A DNA stretch of 64,000 bases from an uncultured Gemmatimonadales bacterium (GTDB taxonomy: Bacteria > Gemmatimonadota > Gemmatimonadetes > Gemmatimonadales > GWC2-71-9), in assembly GCA_963795085.1 (NCBI GenBank), contig CAWCFX010000006.1:512001-576000 (forward strand), given 5' to 3'. The translations under genes and the position numbers were made by a program. Below are positions 3,714 to 50,257 of the stretch, in pieces; the stretch's first letter is position 1, and each line of letters opens with the position of its first letter. Under the pieces are notes generated by a model, which did no database searches, was not told the origin of the DNA, and saw nothing but the letters and a program-made list of their open reading frames with translations.

Positions 3714-3721
3714 CCACGACA

Positions 3722-3746
3722 AAGGGCCGGTCGAGGACCGGCCCTT
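3722..3746. terminator. Hairpin between convergent genes, probable bidirectional terminator
   Basis: AAGGGCCGGTC-GAG-GACCGGCCCTT, a perfect 11-bp stem just after the wzc stop. Confidence 0.75.
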
Positions 3747-3762
3747 CTGTTACCGCCGGGAC

Positions 3763-4725
3763 TCAGGACAGCGACTTGACGGGCACCTGCTCGAAGGCCT
3801 TGATCCGCTCGCCATTGCCCTCGGTGCGAAGGTGGCGGAGGGCGGTGGTGGCGCGAAGCAGCATCTCGACCGCGTCCACCGACGATTCGGCGAAATCGGG
3901 CACGGCGCAGTACCCCGCCCGGATGCGAAGCCGTTTCTCAAGATCGCCCAGGTTGACGCTCTCCGACTCGATGCTCTGCCCCAGTCGCTGCATCAGGCGG
4001 AGCGCTCCCTCGGCCTCGGTGCCGGGGGCGATGACCGCGAATTCGGACCGGCCCAGCCGGCCGATGGCGTCGGAGGCACGGCCGTGCTGGCGAATGATTT
4101 CGCCGACCCGCTCGGCGACCCTGAGGGCGATCTCTTCGGTGGCCTGATCGGTGTGGTCGGAGGCGGCGGATTCGGGATCGGGCGAGAAAACGATGCAGGC
4201 GAGGGCGTGGTGGCGGCGAAAGGCTTCGGACCCGATTTCGCGAGCCCGCTTGGCGAGGCCCCGCATGTTATAAAGCCCGGTCAGCTGGTCCAGCAGGCTT
4301 TCATCACGAACCCGGTCGATTTCAAACTTGGCCCGGATGAATGTCTGCAGCTTGAGCAGCAGCGCTTCGCCGTCGAGCGGCTGGCCCAGGAACTCCCATG
4401 CGCCGGCGCGGTAGGCTTCCAGCCGCTGAGCTCTTCCGGAGGGGCCGCTGGTGGTGATGATGATCGGGACCGTGCCGCTGAAGCGGGCATCATCCTTGAG
4501 CGCCCGGCACACCTCGACCCCATGCATGTCCGGCATCTGGGCGTCGAGGATGATCAGGTCCGGCTGCGCGGTCCGGGCCCGGTCAAGGGCCTGCTGCCCG
4601 GTATAGGCGCGGAGCACGGCAAAGCCGTTGGGCGCGAGAATGCTCTCCAGCGAGCGGGCAGACCATTCCTGGTCATTCGCGATGAGGACGAGAGGTGGGC
4701 GTGACGCCTTTTCGCGGTCGGTCAT
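3763..4725 (-). CDS. Atypical receiver + degenerate GGDEF protein, probable c-di-GMP receptor
   Basis: REC: VLIANDQ...LIILDAQMPDMHG...FLGQP (conserved K replaced by Q). GGDEF region: DQLTGLYN...RASD-AIGRL-GRSEF. Start taken at ATG 4725. Confidence 0.85.
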   Translation of the reverse strand: MTDREKASRPPLVLIANDQEWSARSLESILAPNGFAVLRAYTGQQALDRARTAQPDLIILDAQMPDMHGVEVCRALKDDARFSGTVPIIITTSGPSGRAQRLEAYRAGAWEFLGQPLDGEALLLKLQTFIRAKFEIDRVRDESLLDQLTGLYNMRGLAKRAREIGSEAFRRHHALACIVFSPDPESAASDHTDQATEEIALRVAERVGEIIRQHGRASDAIGRLGRSEFAVIAPGTEAEGALRLMQRLGQSIESESVNLGDLEKRLRIRAGYCAVPDFAESSVDAVEMLLRATTALRHLRTEGNGERIKAFEQVPVKSLS

Positions 4726-4731
4726 TATCTC

Positions 4732-4790
4732 TCGCTCGGGGAGCCGGTCTTGGACTTCGCTCGGGGAGCCGGTCTTGGACTTCGCTCGGG
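4732..4790. repeat. Tandem direct repeat, 25-bp unit x about 2.4
   Basis: TCGCTCGGGGAGCCGGTCTTGGACT at 4732-4756 and 4757-4781, then TCGCTCGGG at 4782-4790; no spacers. Confidence 0.9.
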
Positions 4791-4871
4791 TCGGACGCGG
4801 AACTTCTGGTTCTGACTGCAGGACTCGTGCGGGACCGGTCTGAGCCCGCAAGACAATACAAATCTTAGTCT

Positions 4872-4885
4872 TATATTGCAATATA
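4872..4885. promoter_or_regulatory. Perfect 14-bp AT-rich palindrome, possible operator
   Basis: TATATTGCAATATA in a divergent intergenic region of a GC-rich sequence. Confidence 0.45.
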
Positions 4886-4917
4886 GTTTGCAGGGCGGCA
4901 GTCCGGGCGCAACATCG

Positions 4918-5018
4918 CTACAGCCTTGAAACCACAAGACTTAGTCCGGGGATGTCGGCGCTCGCTCCCTTCGCCAGCCATGATTGACATGGTAAGTTGT
5001 TATAATTACTTGGCTTAC
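4918..5018. promoter_or_regulatory. Two IHF-like 27-bp AT-rich sites (4918-4944 and 4992-5018)
   Basis: CTAAGTCTTGTGGTTTCAAGGCTGTAG (minus) and GTAAGTTGTTATAATTACTTGGCTTAC (plus); similar to the sites at 42262 and 55151, with partial matches to the IHF core CAA-N4-TTR. Confidence 0.35.
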
Positions 5019-5334
5019 ATGGTGCGACGGGGACCAAGCCAGTGGGTGAAGACCGGGAGGGAAAAGGGCGGGGACCTCCCGGTGCCGAAACTTGCCCCTT
5101 AACGGCGCCGAGGAGCCCGCGAACCCGATCTCCGGACCTGGAGAGCCCGGGATTCCAATCGACCTGTGGCACAGCCACCTCACTTAGTGTAAGCGATTGC
5201 CAACATTGAGACTTCCAAGACTTTCCCGGGTTCTGTATCACAGGGCTATTCCTATGGTATCTCTTAGCTTGATCCACCGGGCGCCAGTGTGGGGTCCACT
5301 CAACTCTAGCACGAGGGATGCACCGGGGGAGTGC

Positions 5335-6171
5335 ATGATAGAGCCTATTCGCCATCAATCGCGCCGGCGCCTGACGCCATCGGTATACGCTTTGCTCATC
5401 CTTCTGATCGGTGCGGCCACCGCAGCGGCCCAGGTGGCTCCCACCATGGACCGGAGGCCCCAGGCTTCGCGAGCGGACCTGGAATCCACCCTGGTGGACA
5501 TCGAGAAAATTATCGCGTCGCCGGCTTACAGCGACGAGGTCAAGCGGCAGAAACAGATGGAAGCCGCCTCCATCCGGACCCGCCTCCAGGATGGCGACTT
5601 CCAGGTGGGCGACCAGTTGGCCATCACCCTGTCGGTCCCCATCCAGCCGGGGGGGCAGCCGATCAACAACGGAGTCTTCGCGGTGGGCCCGGACCAGATG
5701 CTGCAGCTTCCAGACATCGCGGCGATCCCGTTGCGCGGGGTGTTACGGTCGGAGGTGCAGACCTACCTGACCGAGCAGCTCCGCCGACTGTTCAAGGACC
5801 AGACGGTGCTGGTGGTGCCGACCATCCGGCTCACCATTCTCGGCGGGATCGGCAATCCCGGCTTCTACCAGTTGCCGGCGGACACCCCGCTCCCCGACGC
5901 CATCATGAAGGCGGGAGGGCCGGGCGGCAATACCGAACTCAACAAGTCCGTGATCCGGCGAGGCACCGAAGAATTGTGGGGAGAGGAAGAAGTCGCCGCC
6001 GCCATCACGGCCGGTACTACGCTGGATCAGCTCAACCTGCGCGCCGGGGATGAGCTGGTCATTGGCCAGAAATCCACTACGAACTGGTTCACCACATTAC
6101 GGACATACGCGCTCATCCCATCTCTGATCCTGAGCCTGGTCGCCCTCGGCCGGTTGTTCGGGATCATTTGA
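5335..6171 (+). CDS. Polysaccharide export protein with SLBB domain (Wza/OPX-like)
   Basis: Signal peptide, then FQVGDQLAI...VGPDQMLQLPDI (Poly_export-like), TILGGIGNPGFYQL...DAIMKAGG (SLBB), LRAGDELVI and a C-terminal hydrophobic helix. GGGGGAG precedes ATG 5335. Confidence 0.8.
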   Translation: MIEPIRHQSRRRLTPSVYALLILLIGAATAAAQVAPTMDRRPQASRADLESTLVDIEKIIASPAYSDEVKRQKQMEAASIRTRLQDGDFQVGDQLAITLSVPIQPGGQPINNGVFAVGPDQMLQLPDIAAIPLRGVLRSEVQTYLTEQLRRLFKDQTVLVVPTIRLTILGGIGNPGFYQLPADTPLPDAIMKAGGPGGNTELNKSVIRRGTEELWGEEEVAAAITAGTTLDQLNLRAGDELVIGQKSTTNWFTTLRTYALIPSLILSLVALGRLFGII

Positions 6172-8492: not shown

Positions 8493-9665
8493 TCAGGACT
8501 GGACCGGCCGCCGGGTCGGTTCCCAGATCGGGTTCCGCTCGCCGCGCAGCGCCTTGACCCAGGCCAGGACGCCGGCCAGGTTGGCGGCGAACCCAAACGC
8601 AAAGACCGTGAGAATGCGGGGCAGCCGCCGGGTATCGGCGGCCCGCATCGCCGCCGCGCCCACCACGATTCCCGCCAGCACCAGCGCCAGCAGTACCCGG
8701 GCCGCGTCCGACCAGAGGGCCAGGTAGCCCAGCCCCAGTAACGCGCCCGGCAGGGTGAAGAACACCAGCCACCGGCACAGCTTGTGGCTGATCAGCTTGA
8801 GCGCGAAGCCGCCATGGACCAGCGGGTTCATGAGGTGGCGCTTGTACCAGAGGGTGTCCAGCCCGCGGGCCATCGTTCGCACCTTGCGCCGGAACTCCGA
8901 CCGCAGCGTCCCCGCCCGGGGGACCAGGCAGACGGCCTCGTCTACCGAGACCGCCCGGTGCCCCTGCTCCTGGCTGATGAGCGCCGCCGCAAAGTCGCGG
9001 CTCAGCGCCTCGGGAAACAGCGACACGTGCAAGGGCCGCCGGATAGCATAGAAGCACCCGCTGGCGCCGATGATTCCCCCCAGCCGGGTTTCCATGGCGC
9101 GCACCTTCATTTCATATCCGACATAGCCCGATTCGCTCTGGTTGGCGTCCGAGGTAATATCACCGACACTGAGGTCCCGCCCGCTCGCCACCCCGATGGT
9201 CGCGTCCTGGAAGACCCGCACCAGCGGCTTGACAGCCTCCGGGAGGATCCGGATGGTCGCATCGGTATTGATGATGATCTCGCCGGTCAAATGGGGGCCC
9301 GCGGCGTTCTCGGCGGCGGTCTTGCCGCCCCGGCGCTCCAGCCGAAGCAGATTGACACCCTGGCCAGCGTACTCCCGCACGATGTCATCGGTCCGGTCGG
9401 TGGAGGCATCGCTGATGACCAGGATCTGGCGCCGCTCGTCGGGATAGTCGATCGCCAGCAGGGCATCCAGAGTTCGGCGGATCGAACTCTCCTCGTTGTA
9501 GGCCGGCAGCGAGAAGCTCACCGTGGGCCAGGGCTCCGGGTCGGCCAGGGACGCCGGTGGGCGGCGCACCCGGCCCAGTGCCCACAGGATCGCTGGATAC
9601 ACGAGGTAGCTGTAGGCGAAAAAGGCCGGCGGCAACAGCACCAGGACGAGGGCGAAATTCTTCAT
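8493..9665 (-). CDS. Family 2 glycosyltransferase, membrane-bound
   Basis: N-terminal TM; LPAYNEE, ISDASTDRT, GGKTAAEN, NTDAT (DxD-like), GASGCFYAIRR, EFRRKVR; C-terminal TMs. ATG 9665 overlaps the upstream stop. Confidence 0.9.
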   Translation of the reverse strand: MKNFALVLVLLPPAFFAYSYLVYPAILWALGRVRRPPASLADPEPWPTVSFSLPAYNEESSIRRTLDALLAIDYPDERRQILVISDASTDRTDDIVREYAGQGVNLLRLERRGGKTAAENAAGPHLTGEIIINTDATIRILPEAVKPLVRVFQDATIGVASGRDLSVGDITSDANQSESGYVGYEMKVRAMETRLGGIIGASGCFYAIRRPLHVSLFPEALSRDFAAALISQEQGHRAVSVDEAVCLVPRAGTLRSEFRRKVRTMARGLDTLWYKRHLMNPLVHGGFALKLISHKLCRWLVFFTLPGALLGLGYLALWSDAARVLLALVLAGIVVGAAAMRAADTRRLPRILTVFAFGFAANLAGVLAWVKALRGERNPIWEPTRRPVQS

Positions 9666-24474: not shown

Positions 24475-26264
24475 ACGGCCAGCCCTCGCGCGGGGCAGCC
24501 CCGCCGATCCCCATTCTGTTCCTGGCTCTCTGGCTGGCACTTGCCGCCGGGGTGGCGGAGGGACTGGTCCGGCTGACCCAGAGCCTGGCGTTCGGAAAGG
24601 TGATCGGAGTCAGCCCGCATATCATCTGGACCGCTCCCCTGGCGAACCTGGCATGGATCGGAGTTCCGGCGCTGCTCCTGGCGGGCATGGGCAGGCTCCT
24701 GCGCTGGCCAGGGCGCCAGAGAATCACGGCGTTTGTGCTGGTGGGCCTGGCCGTCAGCAGCCTGGCTCTGCTCTACCCTTCCATGCACAAGGCCGTCACG
24801 CTGTTCCTGTCCGCGGCGATCGGGTGGAAGCTCTCCGGGTGGATGCTGGGATCCCCGCGGTTCTCCCGGCTGGCCCACCGGAGCGTGCCGATGCTGGTCG
24901 GTGCCGCGGTGCTCGGCGGGCTGCTGATCGCCGGATCCCGCCGGCTCCACGAGCGGCGACTCCTCACGGCGGCGCCGGCGGCCGGCCTGCCGAACGTGCT
25001 GCTGATCGTCCTCGACACGGTGCGAGATGAAAACATGAGTGTTTCGGGATACGGCGTCTCGACCACGCCGTTCCTGGAGCGATTCGCCGCGGAGGGGACC
25101 CGTTTCGAACGCGCCATGTCGACCGCCCCGTGGACCCTGCCGGCCCACGCGTCCATGTTCACCGGGCGATTGCCCGCCCAGCTGAAGGCCGCCTGGCGGA
25201 CGCCGTTGCAGCCCCGTTTCGCCGTGGTGGCCGAGAGCTTCGGCCAGGCCGGGTACCGGACCGGCGGGTTCACCGCCAACATGGCCTATACCACCCGGGA
25301 ACACGGCCTGGCCCGGGGTTTCGGACGCTACGAGGACTATGACCTGTCCCCGGTCGGGATCCTGGCCAGTTCCCGGATGGGGCGGCTGATTACCTATCTC
25401 AAGCCGGTACGGCGGGCGCTCGGATTCTGGGATATCCCCGGACGAAAAACGGCAGAGGACGTCAACCGCGATTTCACGGACTGGATGGAGGACGGCGGGG
25501 CGCGTCCGTTCTTCGCGTTTCTCAACTATTTCGACGCGCACCAGCCCTACCTGCCGGAGGAGCCGTATCGGAGCAAGTTCGTGAAGCCGACCGGCCGGCC
25601 CTACGAGCCGACCCCGGAGGGGGCGCCCTTCGACCAGATGACCGCGCCGGAGATCCAGACCGAGCTGGAGCACTACAACGCCGGCATCGCGCAGGAGGAC
25701 GCCGCGCTGGCGGCGCTCATGGAAGATCTCCGGCGGCGCGGCCTCCTCGACCGAACCCTGGTGATCATTACGTCCGATCACGGTGAACAGTTCGGCGAGC
25801 ACCGCAAGATGGCCCATGGCAACAGCCTGTACCGGCAGGTCCTGGAAGTTCCGCTCCTGATGCGGCTGCCCGGGGCGGTGCCCGCCGAACTGGTGGTTGA
25901 AGAACCCGTGAGCATCGCCGATCTGGCCCGAACCATGCTCGGCCTGGCCGGACAGGCCGATACGGCCCGTTACCCCGGTGCGTCGCTCGCCAGATTCTGG
26001 GAGGCTGGTCAGGGTGCGGTGCCGGAGGCGCCGGTCGTGAGCATCATGTACGGCCCGGGTGGTTCCGCCTGGTCGTTCATCGACGGTGAGTATCACTACT
26101 TGCACTGGTTCCGCGAGGACCCGGAACTGTACGCGCTGGACGACGAGCAGGAAACCCGGAACCTGGCCAGCGCGCCGGGCATGCAGGCCCAGCTGGATCA
26201 CTTTGCCAACCTGCGGGCGTCCTATGCCCGCCAACTGTCCGACCAGGGGAGATCATCGCAGTGA
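24471..26264 (+). CDS. Membrane-anchored sulfatase-fold protein 6, Thr nucleophile
   Basis: Start GTG 24471; TMs; [43 protein letters not shown]...HG. Confidence 0.88.
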
Positions 26265-28119
26265 CACAGGCCAAGACCGGAACGCCCACCGCCCCAGAGC
26301 CGGCCGCGCGGACTTCGTCCGAACCGGAGACGACGTCCAAGCAGCAGATGAACATCGTGATCGGCGGCCACGTGGACCATGGCAAGAGCACGATCATCGG
26401 CCGCCTGATGGCGGATACCCACTCCCTGCCCGACGGCAAGCTGGAGCAGGTCAAGGCGCTCTGCGAACGGACGGCGAAGCCGTTCGAGTATGCCTTCCTT
26501 CTCGACGCCCTGAAGGACGAGCAGGCCCAGGGCATCACCATCGATTCGGCCCGGGTGTTCTTCAAGACCGCCCAGCGGGACTACATCATCATCGATGCTC
26601 CCGGACATATCGAGTTCCTCAAGAACATGGTGACCGGCGCCAGCCGGGCCGAGGCCGCCCTGCTGGTGATCGACGCCAAGGAAGGGGTCCAGGAGAACAG
26701 CCGCCGCCACGGGTACATGATGTCCATGCTGGGCATCCGGCAGATCGCGGTGCTGGTCAACAAGATGGACCTGGTGAACTACGACCGGGCCGTGTTCGAC
26801 CAGATCGTGCGGGAGTACACCGCGTTCCTCACCAACCTCAAGGTCACTCCGGCCGCGTTCATCCCGGTAGCGGGACGGGATGGCGAGAACATCGCCACCC
26901 AGTCGGCCCGGATGCCCTGGTACACCGGCCACACGGTGCTCGGCATGCTGGACGCCTTCGAGAAGGAGCCAGCGCCGGTGGCGGCCCCGTTCCGGATGCC
27001 GGTGCAGGACATCTACAAGTTCACCAAGCAGGGCGACGACCGGCGCATCGTGGCCGGCACCATCGATACCGGCACCATTCACGTCGGCGATGAGGTGGTC
27101 TTCTATCCTTCCGGCAAGAAGAGCCGGATCAAGTCCATTGAAGGGTTCAACCGGCCGCCGCAGGCCCGGGCCGAAGCAGGCCAGGCGGCCGGATTTACGC
27201 TGCAGGAACAGATCTATGTCGCCCGGGGCGAGATGGCCACGCTGGCGACCGAGCCGAGGCCCAAGGTGACGACCCGGCTCAAGGTGAATCTGTTCTGGCT
27301 GGGCAAGAACTCCCTGGTCACCAAGAAGGACTACCTTCTCAAGCTGGGCACCACCCGGGTGCCCATGCGGCTGGAGGAGGTCCACCGGGTCATCGATGCA
27401 TCCGACCTCTCCACCAAGGACTCCAAGCAGCGGATCGACCGGAACGACGTGGCGGAGTGCACCATCAAGCTCAACCGGGCCATCGCCTTCGACCTGGCCG
27501 ATGAGATCGCGGCCACCAGCCGGTTCGTGGTCATTGACGATTACGAGATCCGGGGCGGCGGCATCATCCGCGAGGCGCTGCCGGACCGGCAGACCTGGGT
27601 GCGGGACAAGGTCCTGCTCCGGAACTACAAGTGGGAATCCAGCATCATTCCGCCCGAGCGGCGGGCCGAGAAGCTCAACCAGCGCTCGGTCCTGCTGCTG
27701 ATCACCGGGGAGCAGGAGGCCGACCGGAAGAGCCTCGCCAAGGGCCTCGAGTCCCGCCTCTTTGAGGACGGCAAGGTGGTGTACTACCTCGGCATCGGCA
27801 ACGTGCTCTACGGCGTGGACGCCGACATCGAACGGAAGGACGAGAACCGGCAGGAGCACATGCGCCGGATGGCGGAGGTCGCGAACCTGATGCTCGATGC
27901 CGGCGTGATCCTGATCGTCACCGCGGCGGAACTGACCCAGGACGATCTCGAACTGATCAAGGCCACGGTGGAGCACGACAAGATCGAAACCATCTGGGTG
28001 GGCGACCAGGTCACCACCGATATCGCCTGCGACCTGGTGCTGACCGACCCGGAGCAGGAAGTCGAACGGGTGGACCGTATCAAGAGCCTGCTGCAGGACA
28101 AGGGCGTGATCTACCGGCC

Positions 28120-28126
<7 letters not shown>
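26261..28126 (+). CDS. cysN: Sulfate adenylyltransferase GTPase subunit with degenerate C-terminal APS-kinase-like domain
   Basis: [28 protein letters not shown]. The C-terminal kinase-like region reads [11 protein letters not shown] where the P-loop should be. Confidence 0.9.
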
Positions 28127-29445
<1,319 letters not shown>

Positions 29446-29513
29446 ACCCATCGCCCGACCGGCGAGTATCGCTGCCCGTTTGGCGGCTGAACCACTAAAT
29501 CAGAGGCGGAACG

Positions 29514-30395
29514 ATGGACCACCTGGAACAGCTGGAAAACAAGAGCGTACACATCCTCCGCGAAGCGTACGCCAACTTCAAGCAACTCGGCATGCTCTGG
29601 TCCATCGGAAAGGACAGCACGGTCCTGCTCTGGCTGGCCCGGAAAGCCTTTTACGGCCACGTGCCGTTTCCGCTCATCCACATCGACACTTCGTACAAGA
29701 TCCCGGAGATGATCCACTACCGGGACCAGCTGGTCGCCGAGTGGAACCTGAACCTGATCTATGGCGAGAACCGGGGAGCGCTGGATGCGAAGCGGACCTT
29801 TCCCGACGGTGCGGTGGACCGGATCACCTGCTGCGGGCTGCTCAAGACCGAGGCACTCAAGCACACCCTCTCCGGCGAATGGCCCCGGTACCGGTTCAAT
29901 CATGCGAAGAAGGAGTACGAGCGCGACACCAACACGGAGCCCTTCACCGGCGTCATTGTCGGCGCCCGGGCGGACGAGGAAGGCAGCCGGTCCAAGGAGC
30001 GCTACTTCTCCCCCCGCAACACCAACAACCTCTGGGACGTGGGCGACCAGCCGCCGGAGTTCTGGAACCAGTACAAGACCGATTTTGCGCCGGGAACCCA
30101 CCTCCGGATCCACCCGCTGCTGGACTGGACCGAGCTGAACATCTGGGAGTACATCGAGCGGGAGAACATCCCGACCGTGTCGCTCTACTACGACAAGGGT
30201 GAAGGCAAGCGGTACCGGTCGCTGGGCTGCGGGCCCTGCACCAACGTGGTCGAGTCAGGTGCCCTGAACGTCGCCGATATCATCGTGGAACTGAAGACCG
30301 GCAAGTTCGCCAACATCGCGGAACGGTCGGGGCGCGCCCAGGACAAGGATGACGGCGGCGGGTTGGAAACGCTCAGGAAAGACGGGTATATGTGA
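29514..30395 (+). CDS. cysD: Sulfate adenylyltransferase subunit 2
   Basis: SIGKDS PP-loop, [60 protein letters not shown]-terminus. Confidence 0.93.
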
Positions 30396-33733: not shown

Positions 33734-35071
33734 CTACGACGCCGCGGTCGGGGCCGGCGGCGCTCCGCGGGCAATCGCGAAGGCCTTCTGCATGTGAGGG
33801 GGCATTTCGTCCGACTCGGGTGGTTCGCCCGCCGCGTCCATGATCTGGGTGAGGTCCACCCGGTCGTACCCGCCCGACAGCAGCACCACGAACCGCTCCC
33901 GGAGCAACGGGATCTGGCGGGCCCGGCTGATGATGTTGTTGGCGTCCTTCCGCTCCAGAATGCCGTACCAGTTGTAGATCATCTTGAAAATCGAATACAT
34001 CGGGTGCTTGATCCGGCGCTCGTAGGGCGCCAGCAGCTCGGCCGAGAACCGGTCCTGGCGGAAGCAGTCGAGAATACACTCCGAGGCGTACACCCCCCCC
34101 CGCATGGCCAGGGTCACCCCGGCCGAGAAGATCGGGTCGATGAACATCGAAGCATCCCCCACCAGGACGAAGCCGTCCCCCACGAACCGCTCGTTCAGGT
34201 AGGAGATGTTGGAAATAGTCTGCATCTCCATGGTCTGCTCCGCGCCGGCGACCCATTCGCGTACCCGGTCGCAGCTGGCGACCGCCTTGTCATAGCGCTC
34301 CTGGGGGGTATCGCCCAGGCTCTTGGCGAACTTGGCATCGAGCACCACGCCGACACTGACCACGTCGTCGGCGAGCGGGATGTACCAGACCCAGCCGCCA
34401 TCAATGGTATGGATGTCGGTGGTGGTCGAGGTGGGCATGATCTCGCCCACCGTCACCACTTCGGCCGGGTCCCGCCGGATGCCGCCCTTCACGTGGGTGA
34501 AATGAGAGATCTTGTTCAGCGTCGGATCCGGCTTGCGCCACCCCATCTTCCGGGCCACGAGGCAGTCCCTGCCGGAGGCATCCACCACCACCCGGGCGTT
34601 GATCCGGTGCGGTTCGGCGCCATTGGGCCCGGCCATCACGCCCACCGCCTGGTCCCCCTCGAAGACGACTTCCTTGACCGACCATTCCTCGCGAACCTCG
34701 GCGCCGCGCTTACGGGCGTGGTTCAGCAGGATCTCGTCAAACCGGGCCCGCTCCACGTGGTAGGTCCAGGGCCGCAGGAAACACTCCGGGTACTCGGCGG
34801 TCAGCAGTTTGACGTCTTCCTTCGCGTTGAACATCCCGAACATGATGCCCTGCTTGATGACAAACCCGGCCTGCTCGAGATCGGCCGAGATGCCGAGGCG
34901 TTCCCAGATTTCCCAGGCGCCGGGCAGCAGCGACTCGCCGATGTGGAAGCGGGGAAATTTCTCCCGCTCCAGCACCAGGACCTTGAGCCCTTCGGGCGCG
35001 AGCATGGCCGCCGTGCTGGAGCCGCCCGGGCCCCCGCCGATGACCACGACATCGAAAGTTTCCTGTTTCAT
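33734..35071 (-). CDS. Flavin-dependent halogenase-like protein 1 (PltA/CmlS type)
   Basis: GGGPGG, FPRFHIGESLLP, conserved Lys in GFVIKQG, HVERARFDEIL, WVWYIP (WxWxIP), GDASMFIDPIFSAGV. Confidence 0.8.
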   Translation of the reverse strand: MKQETFDVVVIGGGPGGSSTAAMLAPEGLKVLVLEREKFPRFHIGESLLPGAWEIWERLGISADLEQAGFVIKQGIMFGMFNAKEDVKLLTAEYPECFLRPWTYHVERARFDEILLNHARKRGAEVREEWSVKEVVFEGDQAVGVMAGPNGAEPHRINARVVVDASGRDCLVARKMGWRKPDPTLNKISHFTHVKGGIRRDPAEVVTVGEIMPTSTTTDIHTIDGGWVWYIPLADDVVSVGVVLDAKFAKSLGDTPQERYDKAVASCDRVREWVAGAEQTMEMQTISNISYLNERFVGDGFVLVGDASMFIDPIFSAGVTLAMRGGVYASECILDCFRQDRFSAELLAPYERRIKHPMYSIFKMIYNWYGILERKDANNIISRARQIPLLRERFVVLLSGGYDRVDLTQIMDAAGEPPESDEMPPHMQKAFAIARGAPPAPTAAS

Positions 35072-35120
35072 CTATTCTGCCCTTTGAGCCTTGAGAACCG
35101 GGGAAAACGACGGCGCCGCA

Positions 35121-36476
35121 CTACCCCGCTCTACTGACGGGTTCCACGATCTTGAGCGCGGACAGTGATTCCGACTTGTCCGAGATGAACTCGTCATCGG
35201 TCTCCGGGTTGAGACCGGCCTCCCGCACCATCCGCCGCAGATTATCGGACCGGTTGGTAGTCGCCGCGGCCGTCAGGGCCAGGCCCAGCTCGTTGGGGGG
35301 CATGGACAGGATGAAGTTCCGGACCCCGGCGGCATCGATGCCTTCGCCGCCGAAATCGCCGAAGGCGAGCAGCCGGGAGAACCCGTAGTACTCGAGCAGC
35401 CGGCGGCGGAACATCTCCCGGAAAAACGGTTCCCGGGCCGGCTTTTTCATGGCCTGGTCGATGGCCCAGGTGCAGACCGTGGCGTTGTACATGCCGGTGG
35501 TCACCCCCTGGGAAAAGATCGGGTCCACGAACGAGGCGGCATCGCCGATGCAGAAATAGCCGTCGCCGACCACGTTTTCGGAGTAGTAGGAGTAGTCGGG
35601 CCTGAAGAAGAGCGAATCCGGCACGTAGGTGGCACCGGCCAGCAGGTCCCGCAGATAGGGAATGCCCGTCACGGTCCGGAGGAAGTACTCCTCCTGGGCC
35701 TTCTTGTTCATTCCCTTGGTGGCGTCGGTATTGATCACCAGCCCGATGCTGGTCGTGTCGCGCAGGATAATGTGCCACGCCCACCCGTCCTTGTAGGACA
35801 GGACAAAGGTGACCGGCCGGGCCTGGTAGACCTGGTTGGCCTCATACACCTCGCGGTCGGCGCCCAGGAAGCGGGCGTTCTTGAAATATCCCCACATGCC
35901 CAGGTACTTCCCGTCTGCGCTGACCCGGCGCCGGGCATTGGCCTGGCCCGCGATCACGCCGCTGATCCCGCTGGCGTCCACCACGTAGCGGGCGACGACA
36001 CTGCCCTCCGCGCTGCTCCCTCCGCGCCGATCCTCGTAATGCACCACGGGCGCGTCTCCCCGGCTCAGGTCCACCCGGCGCACCGTAACCTCCTCGTGGA
36101 CCTGGGCGCCCACCGACTCGGCGTGGCGAAGCAGGAGATGGTCGAAGCGGTCCCGCTCCACGTGCAGGGCGGCCCGCTGGACATACCCGAACCGGTCGAA
36201 CCGGATCTGCCGGATCTTGCCGTCCCACACCACGATCCCGCCCGCCTTGGTGACGAATCGCTCGGCATCCACTTTCGCGGTCACCCCCAGTGCTTCGGCG
36301 AACTTCCAGAAATGGGGGATCAGGCTCTCGCCCACCGTGGGGCGGGGATGCCGGGCCTTCTCCAGCAGCAGGGTCTCGTAGCCTGCCCGCGCCAGGAGGT
36401 TGGCCACGCTGCTGCCCGCTGGCCCGCCGCCGATCACGACGACATCGGCCCGGGATGGAATAGTGGTGGTCGTCAC
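35121..36476 (-). CDS. Flavin-dependent halogenase-like protein 2
   Basis: Start GTG 36476; GGGPAG, HPRPTVGESLIP, RFVTKAGG, HVERDRFDHLL, WAWHII, GDAASFVDPIFSQGV. Confidence 0.75.
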   Translation of the reverse strand: MTTTTIPSRADVVVIGGGPAGSSVANLLARAGYETLLLEKARHPRPTVGESLIPHFWKFAEALGVTAKVDAERFVTKAGGIVVWDGKIRQIRFDRFGYVQRAALHVERDRFDHLLLRHAESVGAQVHEEVTVRRVDLSRGDAPVVHYEDRRGGSSAEGSVVARYVVDASGISGVIAGQANARRRVSADGKYLGMWGYFKNARFLGADREVYEANQVYQARPVTFVLSYKDGWAWHIILRDTTSIGLVINTDATKGMNKKAQEEYFLRTVTGIPYLRDLLAGATYVPDSLFFRPDYSYYSENVVGDGYFCIGDAASFVDPIFSQGVTTGMYNATVCTWAIDQAMKKPAREPFFREMFRRRLLEYYGFSRLLAFGDFGGEGIDAAGVRNFILSMPPNELGLALTAAATTNRSDNLRRMVREAGLNPETDDEFISDKSESLSALKIVEPVSRAG

Positions 36477-36490
36477 GATAGCTCGTCCGT

Positions 36491-37954
36491 TCAGAATTTC
36501 AGGGTGACTTCCGCGTACCCGAACTGCCCGGACCGGTCCGGGTAGATCGCCTGGACGACCTCGCCGGCAAACGCGTGGCCGGCATAGACGTGGAACGTGG
36601 CCAGGGCGCTGGGATCCCAGGTTACCCCGAGATCGACCAGGGTTGCCAACTGGGTTTCGCCGTTGGAGGGCCTGCCGCCGTACCCGAAGTTGCCCCGGCG
36701 GCGGAACGCGCCCGATCCGGCATACCAGAGATCGGCCGCCTCGGCGAGTTCCAGTTTTCGCAGGTCGGTCCGCAGGGATAGCTTGCCGGGCACCGGCCGG
36801 AGGATCGCCTGCAGGAACAGCTCCTTCGTGTTCATGGCATTGAAGAATGGAAACTGGGCATACTGCCGCACCGTGGTGAGCGCAGGGAAAAAGGTCCGGT
36901 GGGTGCCGTCCCCGGCATCGTCGTCGCCGGAGCCCTGGAAGTAGCCGGCGCGGATCCAGGGCCGCCAGGGCGCCCGTGGCTGGTAGCCAGCCTCGGCCGC
37001 GACGGCCCAGGCCCGATGCCGGAGCATACCCCACTCGCCGGTCTGCGCCGTTCCCCAGAGCATCAGGTCGGCGTCGCCACCTCCCAGCTTCATGGCGCGG
37101 GCGATGTGCCCCCCAAACATCGAGATGCCAATATCCTCTCCGTCGGCAGCCCGCGCCGGAGCGGGGCGGTTGTCTACTTTGGTCACCGTGTCCGCGGCAT
37201 TCCGGGAGTCACGGTAGCCGTAGAAGAAGAGGCGAACGTCGGTGCGGTCCAGCAGGGCACCCGGCTTGAGGGTAAGACTGCCGCCGCCGATCGATACTTC
37301 GCCGATCCGGTCCATGCCTTCCAGCTCGAAGCCGCCCTGCCGCGGATAGAGCAGAAGCGCAGTGGCATTAACGGGGCCCCGGGTGACCGAGGCCTGCCCC
37401 CCATCGAAGCTGCGTCCCCCGTGGCTGAAGGCGAAGGTCCCGATCAGCCGCGCGGAGAGCCGGACCCGCTTGAGCCAGTCAATCGTCGGATCCCCGCTCA
37501 TCACCTCGAGGCCGTCCAGGTATTCCATGCGGCCCAGCCGCAGAAACGTCTCGGGCCGGCTGGCGCGCAGCGTCACATACGCCTGGTTGAGAAATACCCG
37601 GCTGATATCCCGCTCCTGGTGCTGCGCGAAGTAGGTGGCCCCGAGTCCCAGGTCGCCGGCGGGCGGTGCAGCGGTCGCGTCATCGGGCAGGCCGAGCAAC
37701 GTGGAGTTCTGGAGATCCACCCGGGCATCCAGCCAGCGGGGCGCCCGGTAATTCAGCACCAGGTTGGTCCGGGCGGCCAGAAACCCGTAGCTGTTGTCAG
37801 CTGCGGACGCGGCGGGCTCGAACCAGTTCCATTGTTCGTACCGGACCCGGGAGGTCGCGTTCAGACGCACTTCATGGCGCGCCGGTGCCGGTGTCTGCGC
37901 CAGAGCCTGTCCGGCCAGGACACCCGCCATGGACAGCAACGCCAGGGTACGCAT
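36491..37954 (-). CDS. Alginate-export-family (AlgE-like) outer-membrane beta-barrel
   Basis: Signal peptide from ATG 37954; RVRYEQW, LNQAYVTL, LRLGRME, GRSFDG, GSGDDDAGDGTHRTF, C-terminal Phe (VTLKF). Confidence 0.75.
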   Translation of the reverse strand: MRTLALLSMAGVLAGQALAQTPAPARHEVRLNATSRVRYEQWNWFEPAASAADNSYGFLAARTNLVLNYRAPRWLDARVDLQNSTLLGLPDDATAAPPAGDLGLGATYFAQHQERDISRVFLNQAYVTLRASRPETFLRLGRMEYLDGLEVMSGDPTIDWLKRVRLSARLIGTFAFSHGGRSFDGGQASVTRGPVNATALLLYPRQGGFELEGMDRIGEVSIGGGSLTLKPGALLDRTDVRLFFYGYRDSRNAADTVTKVDNRPAPARAADGEDIGISMFGGHIARAMKLGGGDADLMLWGTAQTGEWGMLRHRAWAVAAEAGYQPRAPWRPWIRAGYFQGSGDDDAGDGTHRTFFPALTTVRQYAQFPFFNAMNTKELFLQAILRPVPGKLSLRTDLRKLELAEAADLWYAGSGAFRRRGNFGYGGRPSNGETQLATLVDLGVTWDPSALATFHVYAGHAFAGEVVQAIYPDRSGQFGYAEVTLKF

Positions 37955-38793
37955 CAGCGGGCCCCCGTTGAACCAGGTGGAGCCTTCGGGTGGGTCGCTT
38001 CGTGCTGCTCTTCCAGCCGGTGGACCATGGTTTCCCAGGGGAGGGCCGATGGCGACAGGCCCAGCTCGGTCAGCACCCTCTCCTTGAGAGCCACCAGCAT
38101 GAGGCTGGACATGATCCGGGGCTGCGGAATATTTACTTCGACGACGCACTTGACCCGGCCGGGCCGAGGCGTCATGACATAGATCCGGTCGGCGAGGTGA
38201 AGAGCTTCCTCGACATCGTGGGTCACCAGCAGGCAGGTATGCCGGTCCTGCGCCAGGATGCGGAGGAGCTCGCCGCGCATCTTCATCTTGGTCAGTGCAT
38301 CCAGCGCCCCGAATGGCTCGTCCATGTAGAGCAGGTCAGGCTTGGCCATCAGGGCGCGGGCCACCTCCACCCGCTGCAGCATACCGCCGGAGAGCTCGTG
38401 GGGATAGCGGCCTTCGAAGCCTTCGAGGCCGACCAGTTCGATGTAGTGCCGGGTCAACCGCTGCCGCTCGGCATCCGGACTGCCGTTGAGTGCCAGCTCC
38501 AGGTTGCGGCCCACCGTCATCCACGGAAAGACCGACCCCCGCTGGGTGATCATGATACCCCGGCGGCTGGGCTCCCCCACCGGGCGGCCGCCCACCAGCA
38601 CCTCGCCCCGGTCCGGCTGGTCGAACCCGGCGATCATGTTGAGCAGGGTGGATTTGCCGCAGCCCGATGCGCCGACGATGGCGACGAACTCCCCGTCCGC
38701 CACGGTGAGCGACATGTCCTCGAGAGCGGAGATCTGGCCCTCCGAGGTGGGAAAAGTCTTGTAGACGCCCTGGACAGAAATACTAGCGCCCAT
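37954..38793 (-). CDS. ABC transporter ATPase (TauB/SsuB/NrtD family)
   Basis: GASGCGKST, FPWMTV, YPHELSGGMLQRV, YMDEPFGALD, VTHDVEEA. Confidence 0.95.
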   Translation of the reverse strand: MGASISVQGVYKTFPTSEGQISALEDMSLTVADGEFVAIVGASGCGKSTLLNMIAGFDQPDRGEVLVGGRPVGEPSRRGIMITQRGSVFPWMTVGRNLELALNGSPDAERQRLTRHYIELVGLEGFEGRYPHELSGGMLQRVEVARALMAKPDLLYMDEPFGALDALTKMKMRGELLRILAQDRHTCLLVTHDVEEALHLADRIYVMTPRPGRVKCVVEVNIPQPRIMSSLMLVALKERVLTELGLSPSALPWETMVHRLEEQHEATHPKAPPGSTGAR

Positions 38794-39529
38794 TGGCGTA
38801 CCTCCAGCGAACTTCTTTCAGGGTCTCCAGTTGGCGCATCAGGATATCCAGCAGGAACCCGATCACGCCGATGATCACCATGCCCGCGACCACGAGGTCA
38901 TAGCGCATCCCGGCATTCCGGGAGTCGATGATCAGGTATCCCAGCCCCGAATTGATGGCGACCATCTCGGCCGCAACCACCACCAGCCAGGCCACACCCA
39001 GCGCCACCCGCATTCCGGTAATGATCTGGGGAAGGGCCCCCGGGAAGATCACGGTGGTGAACAGCTTGAGCCCGGAAATGCCGAAATTCTTGGCGGCCCG
39101 GATGTACTGCCGCTCCACCAGGTGCACACCGGCCGTGGTGGACACCGCGATGGGGAAAAAGGAGGCCAGGAAGATCAGGAAGATGGGCGAGGCATCGCTG
39201 ACGCCGAACCAGAGGATCGCGAGCGGAATCCAGGCGATGGGCGAGATCGGCCGCAGCATCTGGATCAGGGGATTGAGCGCGCTGAAGGCCCGGCCGTACC
39301 AGCCCATGGCGATCCCGATGGGTACCGCGGTCAGCACCGCGAGACCGTAGCCGGCCGTCACCCGGTAGAGCGAGGCGGCGATATGCTGGGTCAGCGTGCC
39401 CTCTTCCCAGAGCGCACGGATCCCGGTCACCACCGCCAGCGGGGTCGGAAAGATGATGCTGCCGCTGGCCGCGATCCACCAGAGACCCAGCAGCGCGGCG
39501 ATGACCAGAACCGGCAGCAGCCGGTTCAT
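38783..39529 (-). CDS. ABC transporter permease (TauC/SsuC/NrtB family)
   Basis: Six TMs; LRPISPIAWIP, YIRAAKNFG, WLVVVAAEM, GLGYLI. Confidence 0.95.
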   Translation of the reverse strand: MNRLLPVLVIAALLGLWWIAASGSIIFPTPLAVVTGIRALWEEGTLTQHIAASLYRVTAGYGLAVLTAVPIGIAMGWYGRAFSALNPLIQMLRPISPIAWIPLAILWFGVSDASPIFLIFLASFFPIAVSTTAGVHLVERQYIRAAKNFGISGLKLFTTVIFPGALPQIITGMRVALGVAWLVVVAAEMVAINSGLGYLIIDSRNAGMRYDLVVAGMVIIGVIGFLLDILMRQLETLKEVRWRYANGR

Positions 39530-40695
39530 GGCAGCGACTGGCTGAGATCCACCGGCCTGGCGTTCTTCATGAACGTCTCGTCAATGTAGGTCTGGTAGGG
39601 GATCTCGTGGGTGATGATCCCGGCCTCCAGCGACAGCTTCATCAGTTCCTCGAATTCGGCGTGCACCAGGTTGAGGTCCCCGTAGGTCACCCGGTCCGCG
39701 GGCCGCTCCATCACCCAGCGGATCAGGTCGAAGGCCTGGTTGAACATGGACTTGTCCGACGCAATCCGGGCGGCCGTGACGCGGTTCTCCGGGCTGGTTT
39801 CCAGCCACTGCCCGGCCGCCAGCACGTGATCCACCAGCAACTGCACCGTCTCGGGATCTTCGTCAATCAGTTCCTGCCGCACCGTCAGGACGCAGCAGAT
39901 GTAGGTCGGCCATTCGTTCCGGGTCATGTGCAGGATCCGGGCGTAGCCGTCCATTTCCGAGCGGGCGCCGAACGGCTCCCCCGTGGCGTACGCATCCACC
40001 GCGTTGGCCAGCAGGGCGGCGGGCATGTCGGGCGGGGCGATCTCGACCATTTCGATGTCCGCATCCACCAGCCCGTGCTCACGCATCAGCCGGCGGACGA
40101 AGATATGGTCCACCGCGAACCGGCTGGGAATCGCCACCCGCTTCCCGCGGAGATCCCCGAAGGTGCGGTAGGGCGAGTCCTTCTTGACCATGATCACCGC
40201 GCCGGACCGGTGCCCCAGTGCCACCACCTTGACCGGGACCCCCTTGTCGGCCAGGTCCATTGCCATCGGCGCCAGCATCATGGCCACCTTGAGCCGCCCG
40301 GCCACCAGGGCCTCCTTCAACTCGGGCCACCCGCTGTAGCGGACATAGGTCGCGATCTGGGGCACCCGCGCGGCCAGCGACTCGGCCTGCTCCGCCGTGG
40401 GCATGTCCATCCCGGGCATTCCCGCCATGGGACCGCCCGAAGTGTCCATGCCATCCGCCATGTTGATCGGCTCACCTTCGGTCGTCATCGCCCTACAGGC
40501 GATCGGAATGGTGAGGTTTCAGGTAACCGGTAACGCGCCGATCTCGAGCAACTCGCCCGCGCCTTTGGTCGTCCCGGGGCGGTCCTGTCCCCGCCGGTAG
40601 GCGACCGTGATGAACAGGGCCCAGCCGAGAATTGCCGCGATCACCAGCGGCCTGCGGTACCGCTGCCAGTACCGGGAAATGCTTGCGCTCGCCAT
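39526..40695 (-). CDS. ABC substrate-binding protein (NrtA/SsuA-like), probable selenoprotein with Sec at codon 59 (TGA 40519-40521)
   Basis: The track ORFs 40519..40785 and 39526..40488 are in the same frame with a single TGA between them: TM anchor...EIGALPVT*NLTIPIACRAMTTEG...YSGWPELKEAL...YICCVL. A stable hairpin follows the TGA. Confidence 0.75.
40471..40515 (-). other. Bacterial SECIS-like stem-loop
   Basis: After UGA-AAC: CUCACC-AUUCCG-AUCGCC-UGUAG-GGCGAU-GACGACCGAA-GGUGAG. The apical loop starts 22 nt after the UGA and has GU at its positions 2-3. Confidence 0.65.
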
Positions 40696-40815
40696 GGGAG
40701 AGAAGCTCCAGTCCGCCGTAGTGTGCCCCCCGGGGAAGCAGGCCGCCATTGGCCCGCCCCAAGTCAAACCCAGATCCGCCGTCAAGGGGAACAGAGAAAG
40801 GGTACTGCCGCTACA

Positions 40816-41048: not shown

Positions 41049-42197
41049 ATGGATTTCTCCTGGTCGAGCGAACAGCTCGAGTTCAGGCAGACGGTCGTTG
41101 ATTTCGCGCGGAAAGCCCTCCAGGACGACCTGATCGCGCGGGACCGGTCGGCGACGTTTTCCCGCCCGCTCTGGAGCCGTTTGGGGGAGTTCGGCATCCT
41201 GGGCCTGCCCTTTCCCGAAGAATTCGGCGGGGCGGGCAGCGATATCCTGACCACCATCCTGGCGATGGAGGCCCTGGGCTACGGGTGCAAGGACAACGGC
41301 CTGCTCTTCGGCATCGCGGCCCAGATGTGGAGCGTCCAGATGCCGATCTTCAAGTTCGGCACCCCGGAAGCCCGGGCAAAGTACCTGCCCCGCCTCAATT
41401 CGGGAGAATGGATCGGGGCCCACGGGATGAGCGAGCCCGACAGCGGGTCGGACGCATTTGCGCTGCGGACCACCGCCGACCGGCGGGGCGACAGCTATGT
41501 CCTCAACGGCACCAAGACCTTCGTCAGCAACGGTCCCTCGGCGGATCTCTTCCTGGTATTTGCCACCCTGGACCGGACCAAGGGTTTCCTGGGCCTCACC
41601 GGCTTCCTGGTCGAGCGCACGACCCCCGGCCTCAAGGTGAGCAAGGAGATCGAGAAGATGGGGCTGCGCACCTCCCCGATGGCCGAGGTGATCATGGAGG
41701 ATTGCGTCATCCCGGTGGAGAACCGGATCGGGCGGGAGGGGCGCGGAGGGGCGGTCTTCAACGATTCCATGGAATGGGAGCGGGGCTGTATCCTCGCCAG
41801 CTACCTCGGGTCCATGGAACGCCAGCTGGAGTCCTGCGTGCGCCATTCCCAGGAGCGGAAACAGTTCGGCCAGGCGATCGGCCAGTTCCAGTCGGTGGCC
41901 AACAAGATGGTGGACATGAAAGTGCGGCTGGAGACGGCCCGCCTCATCCTGTACAAGGCGGCGTGGAGCAAACAGCAGCAGGGCAAGCATGCCGGTGAGG
42001 ACGCGGCGATTGCCAAGCTCTATCTCAGCGAAGCGTGGGTCAAATCCTGCCTCGATGCCGTCCAGATCCATGGAGGCTATGGATTCACAACCGAGTACGA
42101 GGTCGAGCGGGACCTCCGGGATTCCATCGGCGGTACCCTCTACTCGGGGACATCGGAGATCCAGCGGACCCTGATCGCGCGGCAGCTCGGGTTGTAG
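41049..42197 (+). CDS. Acyl-CoA dehydrogenase family, probable L-prolyl-S-carrier-protein dehydrogenase (PltE/RedW-like)
   Basis: ACAD motifs MSEPDSGSD, LNGTKTFVSNG, KMGLRTSP, RKQFGQAIGQFQ, QIHGGYG, TLYSGTSEIQR. MEALGYGCKDNGLLF and SMEWER resemble prolyl-PCP dehydrogenases; clustered with a carrier and a Pro-coded A domain. Confidence 0.8.
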   Translation: MDFSWSSEQLEFRQTVVDFARKALQDDLIARDRSATFSRPLWSRLGEFGILGLPFPEEFGGAGSDILTTILAMEALGYGCKDNGLLFGIAAQMWSVQMPIFKFGTPEARAKYLPRLNSGEWIGAHGMSEPDSGSDAFALRTTADRRGDSYVLNGTKTFVSNGPSADLFLVFATLDRTKGFLGLTGFLVERTTPGLKVSKEIEKMGLRTSPMAEVIMEDCVIPVENRIGREGRGGAVFNDSMEWERGCILASYLGSMERQLESCVRHSQERKQFGQAIGQFQSVANKMVDMKVRLETARLILYKAAWSKQQQGKHAGEDAAIAKLYLSEAWVKSCLDAVQIHGGYGFTTEYEVERDLRDSIGGTLYSGTSEIQRTLIARQLGL

Positions 42198-49282: not shown

Positions 49283-50257
49283 CTACCGGTCGATCCACCG
49301 CTCTTCGCCCGCCAGCGCCCTCGGCCGTATCCAGAAATACCAGAGCCGGGGCGCCTTTTTCATCCGGTCCTTCAGGTCTTCCGCCACCTCGTGCACCCGG
49401 CCCCGAACCCGCAACGCGGCGCCCGCCGCCGGCTCGGCGGGCTGGTACCCGAACTGCTGCATCAGCGGTCCCGCCGTCCATTCCACCAGGCGCACCTGTT
49501 CCGGCGTCAACTGGTTCTTCCAGGATCCCAGCCGGTCCCGGCTCAACGATCCCTGGGCCCGCTCGAACCAGGGCCGGTCGGCCCGGGCCGGCTGCTTCAC
49601 CTCCAGCATGGCCGGGCTGAAAGTCTCGCCGACGAAGCGGCAGACCTCAGCCAGGCGCTGCTCCGGCTGCTCGACCAGGTCCTCGTAGCGAATCCGCATG
49701 AAGCGGGGATCGTCCCGGGAGGCCTCCGCGGCCGCCGTGAGGCTGGCCCAGAGCCGGCCGTTGGCCGCGGCGCTCTTCCGGCCCCACGGCACGTTGAAGA
49801 GCGAGGCCGTCACGTCCCGGGGGTCGCGAAGCAGGTGGATGACCCGGGCGCCCGGGTACCAGGCGAGCAGGTCGGCCGTATTCCAGGCGTGGTGGGGGGT
49901 CTTCTCGCCCGGCCGCACCTTGCCCATCGATTCGGCGTAGAACGCAAGGATCGCCGCGAAAAACGCGGGGTAGCTGGTGCCCTGGGCCATCAACCGGTCC
50001 GCCAGGGCGGGCAGGTCGATCTTCAGCCGCTGCATCCGGGAAGTTGCGGTGTAGCTCGCGACGAGCCGCTTGCGGTTCTCCGGATCGGCCAGGTCGCCGA
50101 ACGCCCGCCGCCGCAGGTGGACGTAATAGAAAAAATAGGTCTCGTCGCAGAGCCCTATGCGGGGGTGCCGGTTGAGCATCGCCCGGAGCAGCGTCGTCCC
50201 GCTCCGGGGAGCGCCCACGATGAAAATGGGCTGGAACGCGGCCAGGTCCATGGTCAC
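49283..50257 (-). CDS. PAPS-dependent sulfotransferase (Sulfotransfer_3-like)
   Basis: 5'-PSB loop IVGAPRSGTTLL, GEKTP, 3'-PB motif RDPRDVTAS, RYEDLV; no signal peptide. Confidence 0.9.
   Translation of the reverse strand: MTMDLAAFQPIFIVGAPRSGTTLLRAMLNRHPRIGLCDETYFFYYVHLRRRAFGDLADPENRKRLVASYTATSRMQRLKIDLPALADRLMAQGTSYPAFFAAILAFYAESMGKVRPGEKTPHHAWNTADLLAWYPGARVIHLLRDPRDVTASLFNVPWGRKSAAANGRLWASLTAAAEASRDDPRFMRIRYEDLVEQPEQRLAEVCRFVGETFSPAMLEVKQPARADRPWFERAQGSLSRDRLGSWKNQLTPEQVRLVEWTAGPLMQQFGYQPAEPAAGAALRVRGRVHEVAEDLKDRMKKAPRLWYFWIRPRALAGEERWIDR

Follow-up and report, generated by a model that had tools for sequence, protein, structure and literature searches.

The window analysed here is a stretch of 64,000 nucleotides from an uncultured Gemmatimonadales bacterium (assembly GCA_963795085.1, contig CAWCFX010000006.1), and its minus strand carries an ATP-binding cassette (ABC) importer of three genes, in the order binding protein, permease and ATPase, the first of which is interrupted by an in-frame TGA. 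The binding-protein gene (39526..40695, minus) runs from an ATG at 40695-40693, with a GGAG about 10 nt upstream of it, to a terminal TGA at 39528-39526, and encodes 389 aa on read-through. Its sole in-frame TGA lies at 40521-40519 in the context ...LLEIGALPVT-U-NLTIPIACRAM..., where U stands for selenocysteine (Sec), and in the list of open reading frames (ORFs) the gene appears as two pieces of the same frame, 40519..40785 (88 aa) and 39526..40488 (320 aa). An initial annotation of the window, made from the sequence letters, had proposed that these pieces are one selenoprotein gene of 389 codons; the frame 40695-39526 was confirmed, and both peptides to which that annotation had drawn attention, LPVT-U-NLTIPIAC at the TGA and YICCVL later in the protein, were found. 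The terminal TGA overlaps the ATG of the permease gene (ATGA), and the permease (38783..39529, minus; Pfam BPD_transp_1) and the ATPase (37954..38793, minus) belong to the same operon, being adjacent in 70 and 63, respectively, of 78 related loci. The binding-protein gene is present in one copy in its own genome. Although a stop codon seems to divide it, this is almost certainly a single intact gene for a Sec-containing ABC-importer binding protein, and the Pfam matches, the full-length homologues and a structural model give it the NMT1/SsuA fold.

The part of the gene 5' of the TGA holds the protein's only export signal, a predicted membrane anchor or signal at the N-terminus (residues 2-37; 40585..40692, minus), which forms one long helix in an AlphaFold2 model, and at the matching place the relatives have N-termini that are hydrophobic or lipoprotein-like (..AACG..); the downstream piece by itself has no export signal, as had been noted at the outset. 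Beyond the helix the model (predicted local distance difference test, pLDDT, 83.6) shows an alpha/beta body of two lobes, and residues 74-109 are disordered, with pLDDT below 50 at residues 74-96 and 106-109. This disorder falls within a Met-rich insert (residues about 68-113; 40357..40494, minus) that contains 7 Met, with MxM and MxxM runs. Four Cys/Sec positions are conserved in the protein, namely U59, C67 and a vicinal pair, C267 (39897-39895) and C268 (39894-39892), within YICCVL (residues 265-270); the pair (39892..39897, minus) is kept in 79 of 80 genes. By Pfam the binding protein matches NMT1_2 at 111.3 bits (cut-off 24.7) and also NMT1 and Phosphonate-bd. In NCBIfam release 20.0, used with its curated cut-offs, all matches of the binding protein were sub-threshold: SsuA_fam (TIGR01728) reached 117.2 bits against 163.5 over residues 117-377, and taurine binders stayed under 32 bits (TauA, 28.6 against 304). 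Since the score lies under every curated cut-off, the locus was not assigned to the sulfonate or taurine transporters. The fold matches 3un6, 2x26, 3uif and 6ssy, all with probability 1.00, and the best solved match is 3un6 from Staphylococcus aureus (profile E 2e-40; fold E 3.3e-23; target TM-score 0.87).

Relatives were collected by scanning one genome per species, which gave at least 600 pattern matches, at least 562 of them encoding a relative; the best 80 matches, at 78 distinct loci, were analysed, and the motif around residue 59 was readable in 77 of these loci, L043 being without the N-terminus. At the 79 sites in those 77 loci the codon in column 59 is TGA in 30, TGC in 43 and TGT in 6, and never TAA, TAG or any other codon, while the surrounding peptide is conserved on both sides, with LPVT and NLT flanking the site in all. 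Among proteins, the TGA column is occupied by Cys in 20 of 20 aligned full-length homologues (51-65% identical), in which L55 to L61, A66, C67, C267 and C268 are likewise invariant. The UGA (40519..40521, minus) is thus aligned with Cys, and not with Trp, in every homologue that lacks a TGA, at the level of proteins and at the 49 Cys-coding DNA sites alike. Nor is the TGA private to this assembly, the 30 further sites being spread over 29 other assemblies. Sequencing error was considered as well: Logan contigs of two runs match the window without any difference across the TGA, although these may come from the source sample and so not be independent, and the contigs of a third run, which are related sequences with other differences, leave the TGA unchanged while differing at the adjacent synonymous base 40522. 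The initial annotation had expected pipelines to call this gene a pseudogene; what is called instead is a truncated 320-aa protein (P0002). This protein is itself among the 97 of the best 120 database matches to the read-through protein that begin past the TGA and cover at most 82% of the query (the other 23 being full length), and it follows that the gene is systematically truncated in databases and missed by annotation pipelines.

By record labels the TGA forms are mostly Gemmatimonadota, the others being labelled Vicinamibacterales, Rokuibacteriota, Binatia, Verrucomicrobiia, Deltaproteobacteria and Methylomirabilota, labels which for some may reflect wrong binning of metagenome-assembled genomes. 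One Gemmatimonadota contig (L036) carries two TGA-form paralogues, at 6187 and 12027, about 5.8 kb apart and each with the hairpin described below. In a quick maximum-likelihood tree of 80 genes, for which the trait column was masked, one starred clade of 37 (31 U, 6 C) contains every one of the 31 TGA forms, that of the window included, and a second clade of 43 genes, almost all labelled Pseudomonadota, is entirely Cys; the tree requires at least three changes of Sec/Cys state. On the evidence of this tree, the TGA forms are old and have been retained across deep branches.

Immediately 3' of the TGA lies a candidate selenocysteine insertion sequence (SECIS). Its core (40487..40503, minus) is a 6-bp stem in which AUCGCC (40503-40498) pairs with GGCGAU (40492-40487) around the loop UGUAG (40497-40493); the stem starts 15 nt past the UGA and the GU-containing loop 22 nt past it, the latter distance being the one first reported. 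An outer tier, CUCACC (40515-40510) with GGUGAG (40476-40471), surrounds the core (span 40471..40515, minus), and both tiers are present in the minimum-energy fold. If the U of the UGA is numbered 1, the pairing is between bases 19-24 and 30-35, so that the element extends from +19 to +35. When the 31 TGA genes (30 sites plus the window) were set against the 49 Cys genes, all six inner pairs were found in 31/31 of the former and 1/49 of the latter, the five-base loop read NGUNN in each of the 31, and RNAalifold, run unguided, gave exactly the same helix. Conservation in register did not extend to the outer tier, whose six pairs are complete in 1 of the 31 TGA genes, namely the window itself; of the two-tier hairpin originally proposed, then, the inner tier stands and the outer one is specific to this genome. 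In bacteria a SECIS is a stem-loop that closely follows the UGA on its 3' side and has a GU in its apical loop, and the position of the hairpin and its loop GU fit this consensus. The GU is supplied by the codon of residue 67 (in the window, UGU for Cys67), which in the TGA genes is UGU in 26, AGU (Ser) in 5 and UGC in none, and in the Cys genes is UGC in 35 of 49. The five Ser codons (L049, L063, L066, L067 and L094, within the TGA-form clade) arose from Cys67 through UGU to AGU, a change that keeps the loop GU and thereby makes the RNA and protein constraints on one codon visible together.

Several results pull against the selenoprotein interpretation or weaken its support. Confinement of the TGA forms to one clade of 37 means that they are not 31 independent events. 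Compensatory base changes in the hairpin were absent from the 31 TGA genes, in which five of the six pairs are invariant and the sixth is A-U or G-U. The window fold taken alone is unexceptional (z -1.67, with 15 of 200 shuffles folding as well), TGA and Cys genes are not told apart by the folding energy of the whole segment (means -20.4 vs -22.3 kcal/mol, p 0.10), and an Rfam scan of 40380-40600 returned only chance-level matches and no SECIS family. Because single-sequence and whole-segment folding did not discriminate, position-specific pair counts were used, and because compensatory changes are absent, the case for the hairpin rests on the contrast between TGA and Cys genes together with frozen synonymous sites. 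For the latter, relatedness was controlled by examining synonymous codon use within the 31 TGA genes only. Outside the element, more than one codon is used in each of 68 invariant degenerate amino-acid columns (mean codon entropy 1.18 bits); within it, N60 AAC, A66 GCC and A69 GCG are fixed in 31/31 and L61 is CUC in 29, and the synonymous sites of the stem are frozen in the TGA genes only. The view that the inner hairpin behaves as a SECIS is supported by these comparative data.

The window's genome (3.89 Mb in 6 contigs, 93% complete) contains the machinery that Sec insertion would use, with selA at 507.6 bits, selB at 313.9, selD at 384.9 and tRNA-Sec at 68.4, all four over curated cut-offs. 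Among relatives, selA was over its cut-off in 5/5 TGA-form genomes (L026, L033, L040, L049 and L051) and was not found in 5/5 Cys-form genomes (L044, L046, L076, L082 and L069), the completeness of which is not given. The genome's own selD (G000:C4:64282-65202, locus L010) has one in-frame TGA inside its 384.9-bit match, which makes this organism's SelD probably a selenoprotein too. The initial annotation had named three observations that would speak against a selenoprotein, namely a non-Cys residue in homologues, a TGA confined to this assembly and a genome devoid of Sec machinery, and none of them was made. With these lines of evidence combined, the binding-protein gene very probably encodes a selenoprotein.

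What the protein binds was approached through its nearest known systems. SsuA, TauA, NrtA and CmpA, of the NitT/TauT group, have the fold and the three-gene operon architecture in common with the window system but bind oxyanions, and we know of no Cys/Sec cluster in their binding proteins. The best solved match, 3un6, is the ligand-binding component of an ABC importer, and its listed title ends 'with Zin'. Like the window protein it keeps G-x-LP-x-T, GH-x-x-G and YCCV; unlike it, 3un6 is without the Met-rich insert and has His at the Cys/Sec column (LPITH; IGYLPITHS vs vgalPvtcn), overall identity being 23%. In the nearest structure, then, the position of the Sec is taken by a residue of a type likely to bind metal. 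The best NCBIfam match of the permease is SaoP (182.9 bits here and 195.1 in L082, cut-off 295), with TauC lower, and SaoA is within the top three matches of the ATPase (198.4 bits vs a cut-off of 360). Both being sub-cut-off, the transporter is nearest to that of the SAO system without being a member of it, and no other family of the SAO locus, which comprises nine genes, turned up among the nine neighbours scanned.

Two binding proteins of the SAO system offer the closest comparison. SaoX (NF040735) is the only specific NCBIfam family beyond the sulfonate and taurine binders that the window protein matched, and the match, which scores 61 bits where the cut-off is 300 and covers residues 124-379 only, leaves it outside SaoX. 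According to the SAO preprint (bioRxiv 10.1101/2022.07.06.499078), SaoX shares with the window protein an SsuA/NMT1-type fold, conserved Cys residues including a CC pair, and Sec forms, rare in SaoX; its conserved Cys are at 50, 192, 224 and 225, and Haft and Gwadz place the CC pair in a proposed metal-binding cleft. Its Sec is the second residue of the CC motif at 191-192, whereas that of the window protein is in the first strand-loop motif, LPVT-U-N. SaoB (NF040727) gave no NCBIfam match with the window protein at E 0.001. The preprint describes it as an ABC binding protein in which a Sec next to a Cys is proposed to bind metal, over 60% of its members being selenoproteins, and presents SaoB, SaoX and SaoP as the earliest selenoproteins described from ABC transporters. 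SaoB thus resembles the window protein in its type, in the proposed use of Sec for metal binding and in being truncated in databases, and differs in its related solved proteins (3VVE, 4ZV2) and its motif (CU vs T-U-N here). Hosts differ too: SAO is described in that source as exclusively anaerobic, while by record labels the present family belongs to soil Gemmatimonadota and other soil lineages. The family is a new selenoprotein family within the Sec/Cys metal-type ABC binding proteins, differing in Sec position, hosts and partner set.

The partner set points to copper. SCO1/SenC is encoded inside the operon in 52 of the 78 loci (Pfam, 123-137 bits), and the L082 protein keeps the C-x3-C-P motif. 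A conserved small protein of about 130 aa, with an invariant C-x2-H usually followed by x4-M, occurs in 47/78; its Pfam matches to Cupredoxin_1 (E 0.02) and Copper-bind (E 0.0055) are weak, but the best PDB matches of its model (pLDDT 88.3) are all cupredoxins, namely a Nitrosopumilus cupredoxin, amicyanin, a copper-bound Cupredoxin_1 protein and the Cu(I) chaperone CupA. PCuAC is present in 12/78 (115-123 bits), and all eight TGA-form loci with SCO1 have PCuAC too. At L049 a single ORF (8539-9543), downstream of the transporter, fuses SCO1/SenC (123.5 bits) to PCuAC (123 bits). The length of the insert, measured between the LPVT-x-NLT..AC motif and GWPE, mirrors these partners. In 25 genes (the window's, 21 other Gemmatimonadota-type TGA genes and 3 Longimicrobium Cys genes) the insert is Met-rich, with 39-70 aa and 4-11 Met (54 aa and 7 Met in the window), and none of the 25 loci has SCO1. 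The other 54 loci have a short insert of 13-28 aa with 0-2 Met, and 52 of them have SCO1; in the two that do not, the contig ends at most about 1.1 kb past the gene. Met-rich runs of the types MxM and MxxM are characteristic motifs for periplasmic Cu(I), and since the Met-rich insert both carries them and mirrors the absence of the chaperones, we read it as a built-in chaperone substitute and Cu(I) as the likeliest ligand. The known bacterial inner-membrane copper importers, CopD/YcnJ and the major facilitator superfamily proteins CcoA/CalT, use Met motifs to bring copper into the cytoplasm, from where it is later delivered to cuproenzymes, as set out in a review (PMC7558416); they are of other protein families, but may illustrate how the window system works.

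On this reading, a membrane-anchored, extracytoplasmic binding protein of 389 aa would serve the three-gene ABC importer. The SECIS hairpin 15 nt past the UGA would recruit SelB with Sec-tRNA, placing Sec at residue 59, and U59, C67 and C267-C268 would come together in one thiolate/selenolate site within an NMT1/SsuA-type cleft. This site may bind a thiophilic metal ion for import, most likely Cu(I), with the Met-rich loop beside it taking, in this lineage, the place of the separate periplasmic chaperones that relatives' operons encode (SCO1/SenC, PCuAC and the cupredoxin-fold protein). We consider a metal-binding site in the binding protein probable, and put Cu(I) in particular at about even chances. 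The combined proposal, a selenoprotein ABC binding protein whose U59/C67/C267/C268 site imports a thiophilic metal, most likely Cu(I), is favoured with fair confidence. The putative soft-metal ligand suggested at first fits the relatives' context of SCO1/SenC, PCuAC, cupredoxin-fold protein and Met-rich insert.

Against copper stand the following. SCO1, PCuAC and the cupredoxin-like protein gave no match in the window operon or the 64 kb, so that all the copper evidence comes from relatives, and SCO1 gave none in the window's own genome. The permease has no Cys, and the solved homologue 3un6 is listed with zinc, not copper. The neighbours within the window are not copper genes either; they are a PigA-like acyl-CoA dehydrogenase, two flavin adenine dinucleotide (FAD)-dependent halogenase-like enzymes, sulfate-activation genes and a sulfotransferase.

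The alternative that survives best keeps the selenoprotein and changes its ligand, to Zn, Hg, Cd, As(III), or sulfur or selenium species held on the Cys/Sec cluster. The zinc with which 3un6 is listed would suit it, as would the sulfate-activation and sulfotransferase neighbours and the usual ligands of the fold family, which are sulfonates, taurine, nitrate or bicarbonate; permease and ATPase are also similar to those of SAO, a transporter that Haft and Gwadz connect with a mercury-like metal. In the five TGA genes with Ser67 a three-ligand site is left. A three-ligand Cys/Sec site would suit As(III) or Hg(II) too. Set against this are the three copper-chaperone families in the relatives' operons, at 52, 47 and 12 of 78 loci, the Met-rich insert, of a kind typical for Cu(I) sites, that goes with chaperone absence, and the failure of the binding protein to reach any curated sulfonate or taurine cut-off, and we regard a ligand other than copper as unlikely, if still a serious contender. 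A distinctly improbable alternative is that Sec59 acts as a redox catalyst and not as a static ligand, for example by forming a selenosulfide, with C67 or with the ligand, through which a thiol-reactive substrate would be captured or released. Most known selenoproteins do use Sec in redox chemistry, according to a 2026 review (PMC13188914), a U-x7-C spacing is present in 26/31 TGA genes, and SCO1/SenC has a thioredoxin fold, with Pfam AhpC-TSA and Redoxin matches as well; but residue 67 is Ser in 5/31 TGA genes, so a U59-C67 pair is not obligatory, and the partners PCuAC and the cupredoxin-fold protein belong to the metal chaperones and not to the oxidoreductases.

That the TGA is a real stop, through pseudogenization, gene splitting or sequencing error, with only the 320-aa piece or nothing being made, agrees with the gene callers' P0002 and with the 97 of 120 partial matches, but is very improbable given 30 further sites with TGA at exactly that position and none with TAA or TAG, a conserved coding sequence 5' of it with the sole export signal, selection on the hairpin and its synonymous sites, the distribution of selA (5/5 with the TGA form, 0/5 with the Cys form) and the retention of the TGA in contigs of other runs. 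Decoding of the UGA as an ordinary amino acid (near-cognate Trp, Cys or Arg, or an altered code) has nothing specific in its favour, any read-through restoring the frame, and is scarcely credible beside a terminal stop that is also TGA, neighbouring genes that are open in table 11, a complete Sec machinery and a hairpin with SECIS-like position and loop GU.

Around the importer, the genes of the window give a mixed picture. Directly downstream of the ATPase lies an alginate-export-like outer-membrane beta-barrel (36491..37951, minus; PF13372, 68 bits), which is a possible route of entry across the outer membrane; it is unconserved in relatives, with a match in 1 of 78 loci and non-adjacent there. 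This porin-like gene sits between the ATPase and the halogenase-like genes and overlaps a long ORF, 35121-37034, whose true start is probably near 36470. The two FAD-dependent halogenase-like or QhpG-like enzymes and the PigA-like dehydrogenase flank the transporter (33734-37034, minus; 41049-42197, plus), the latter resembling L-prolyl-carrier-protein dehydrogenase at 454.9 bits vs a cut-off of 500. Together they may form a halopyrrole-type pathway, for which neither an adenylation enzyme nor a carrier protein was seen. PigA-like and halogenase-like genes recur in 7-10 of the 78 loci, on either side, but all in close relatives, so shared ancestry explains their presence as well as function would; among four other Gemmatimonadota loci the flanking genes vary. 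Within 10 kb there are also sulfate-activation genes and a sulfotransferase (26261-30395, plus; 49283-50257, minus), the former comprising a CysN/CysC-like fusion, a fusion of CysQ with an adenosine 5'-phosphosulfate (APS) kinase and a CysD-like gene, and the CysD-like gene and CysQ-kinase fusion recur in L026. An extracytoplasmic function (ECF) sigma/anti-sigma pair is also present. Elsewhere, at L035, a 1386-aa galactose-oxidase or glyoxal-oxidase-like protein (1545-5705) is encoded directly upstream of a TGA-form, Met-rich binding-protein gene; the proteins of that family are copper radical oxidases.

The family is apparently both uncatalogued and, in the open literature searched, undescribed. 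None of the 20 top-ranked of 903 papers joined selenocysteine with SsuA, NMT1 or sulfonate-binding proteins. The 2026 review (PMC13188914) lists SaoB, SaoX and BtuF as binding-protein selenoproteins, and PF13379, PF09084, NMT1, sulfonate, NitT, SsuA, periplasmic and bicarbonate were not found in its main text. As for copper, no description of a copper-uptake operon combining SCO1/PCuAC/cupredoxin with an ABC transporter was found in the titles and abstracts searched, and PMC7558416 mentions ABC transporters twice, for export and for NosFY, with no binding-protein-dependent copper importer.

Sec is rare in transport proteins, and this family represents, beside SaoB, SaoX and BtuF, a fourth kind of binding protein to contain it, with another Sec position and other hosts, in a group that counts at least 562 related loci among species-representative genomes. 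In its widest form, which we offer tentatively and at somewhat less than even odds, our interpretation is that the window encodes the Sec form of a widespread, undescribed Cu(I) ABC importer of soil bacteria, an aerobic, copper-handling cousin of SAO, whose Cys3/Sec site in an SsuA-type fold would be fed by periplasmic chaperones (SCO1/SenC, PCuAC and a membrane-anchored cupredoxin) or, in Gemmatimonadota, by its own Met-rich loop in their stead, with selenium sharpening or protecting the site where Sec is made. Cultured hosts of the Cys form exist in Massilia, Duganella and Telluria, which makes the assignment to copper directly testable. If that assignment is true, a binding-protein-dependent ABC route for copper uptake would have been identified, and the natural series of Sec and Cys forms, and of inserts and chaperones, would show how selenolate and a Met-rich loop tune the capture of Cu(I).

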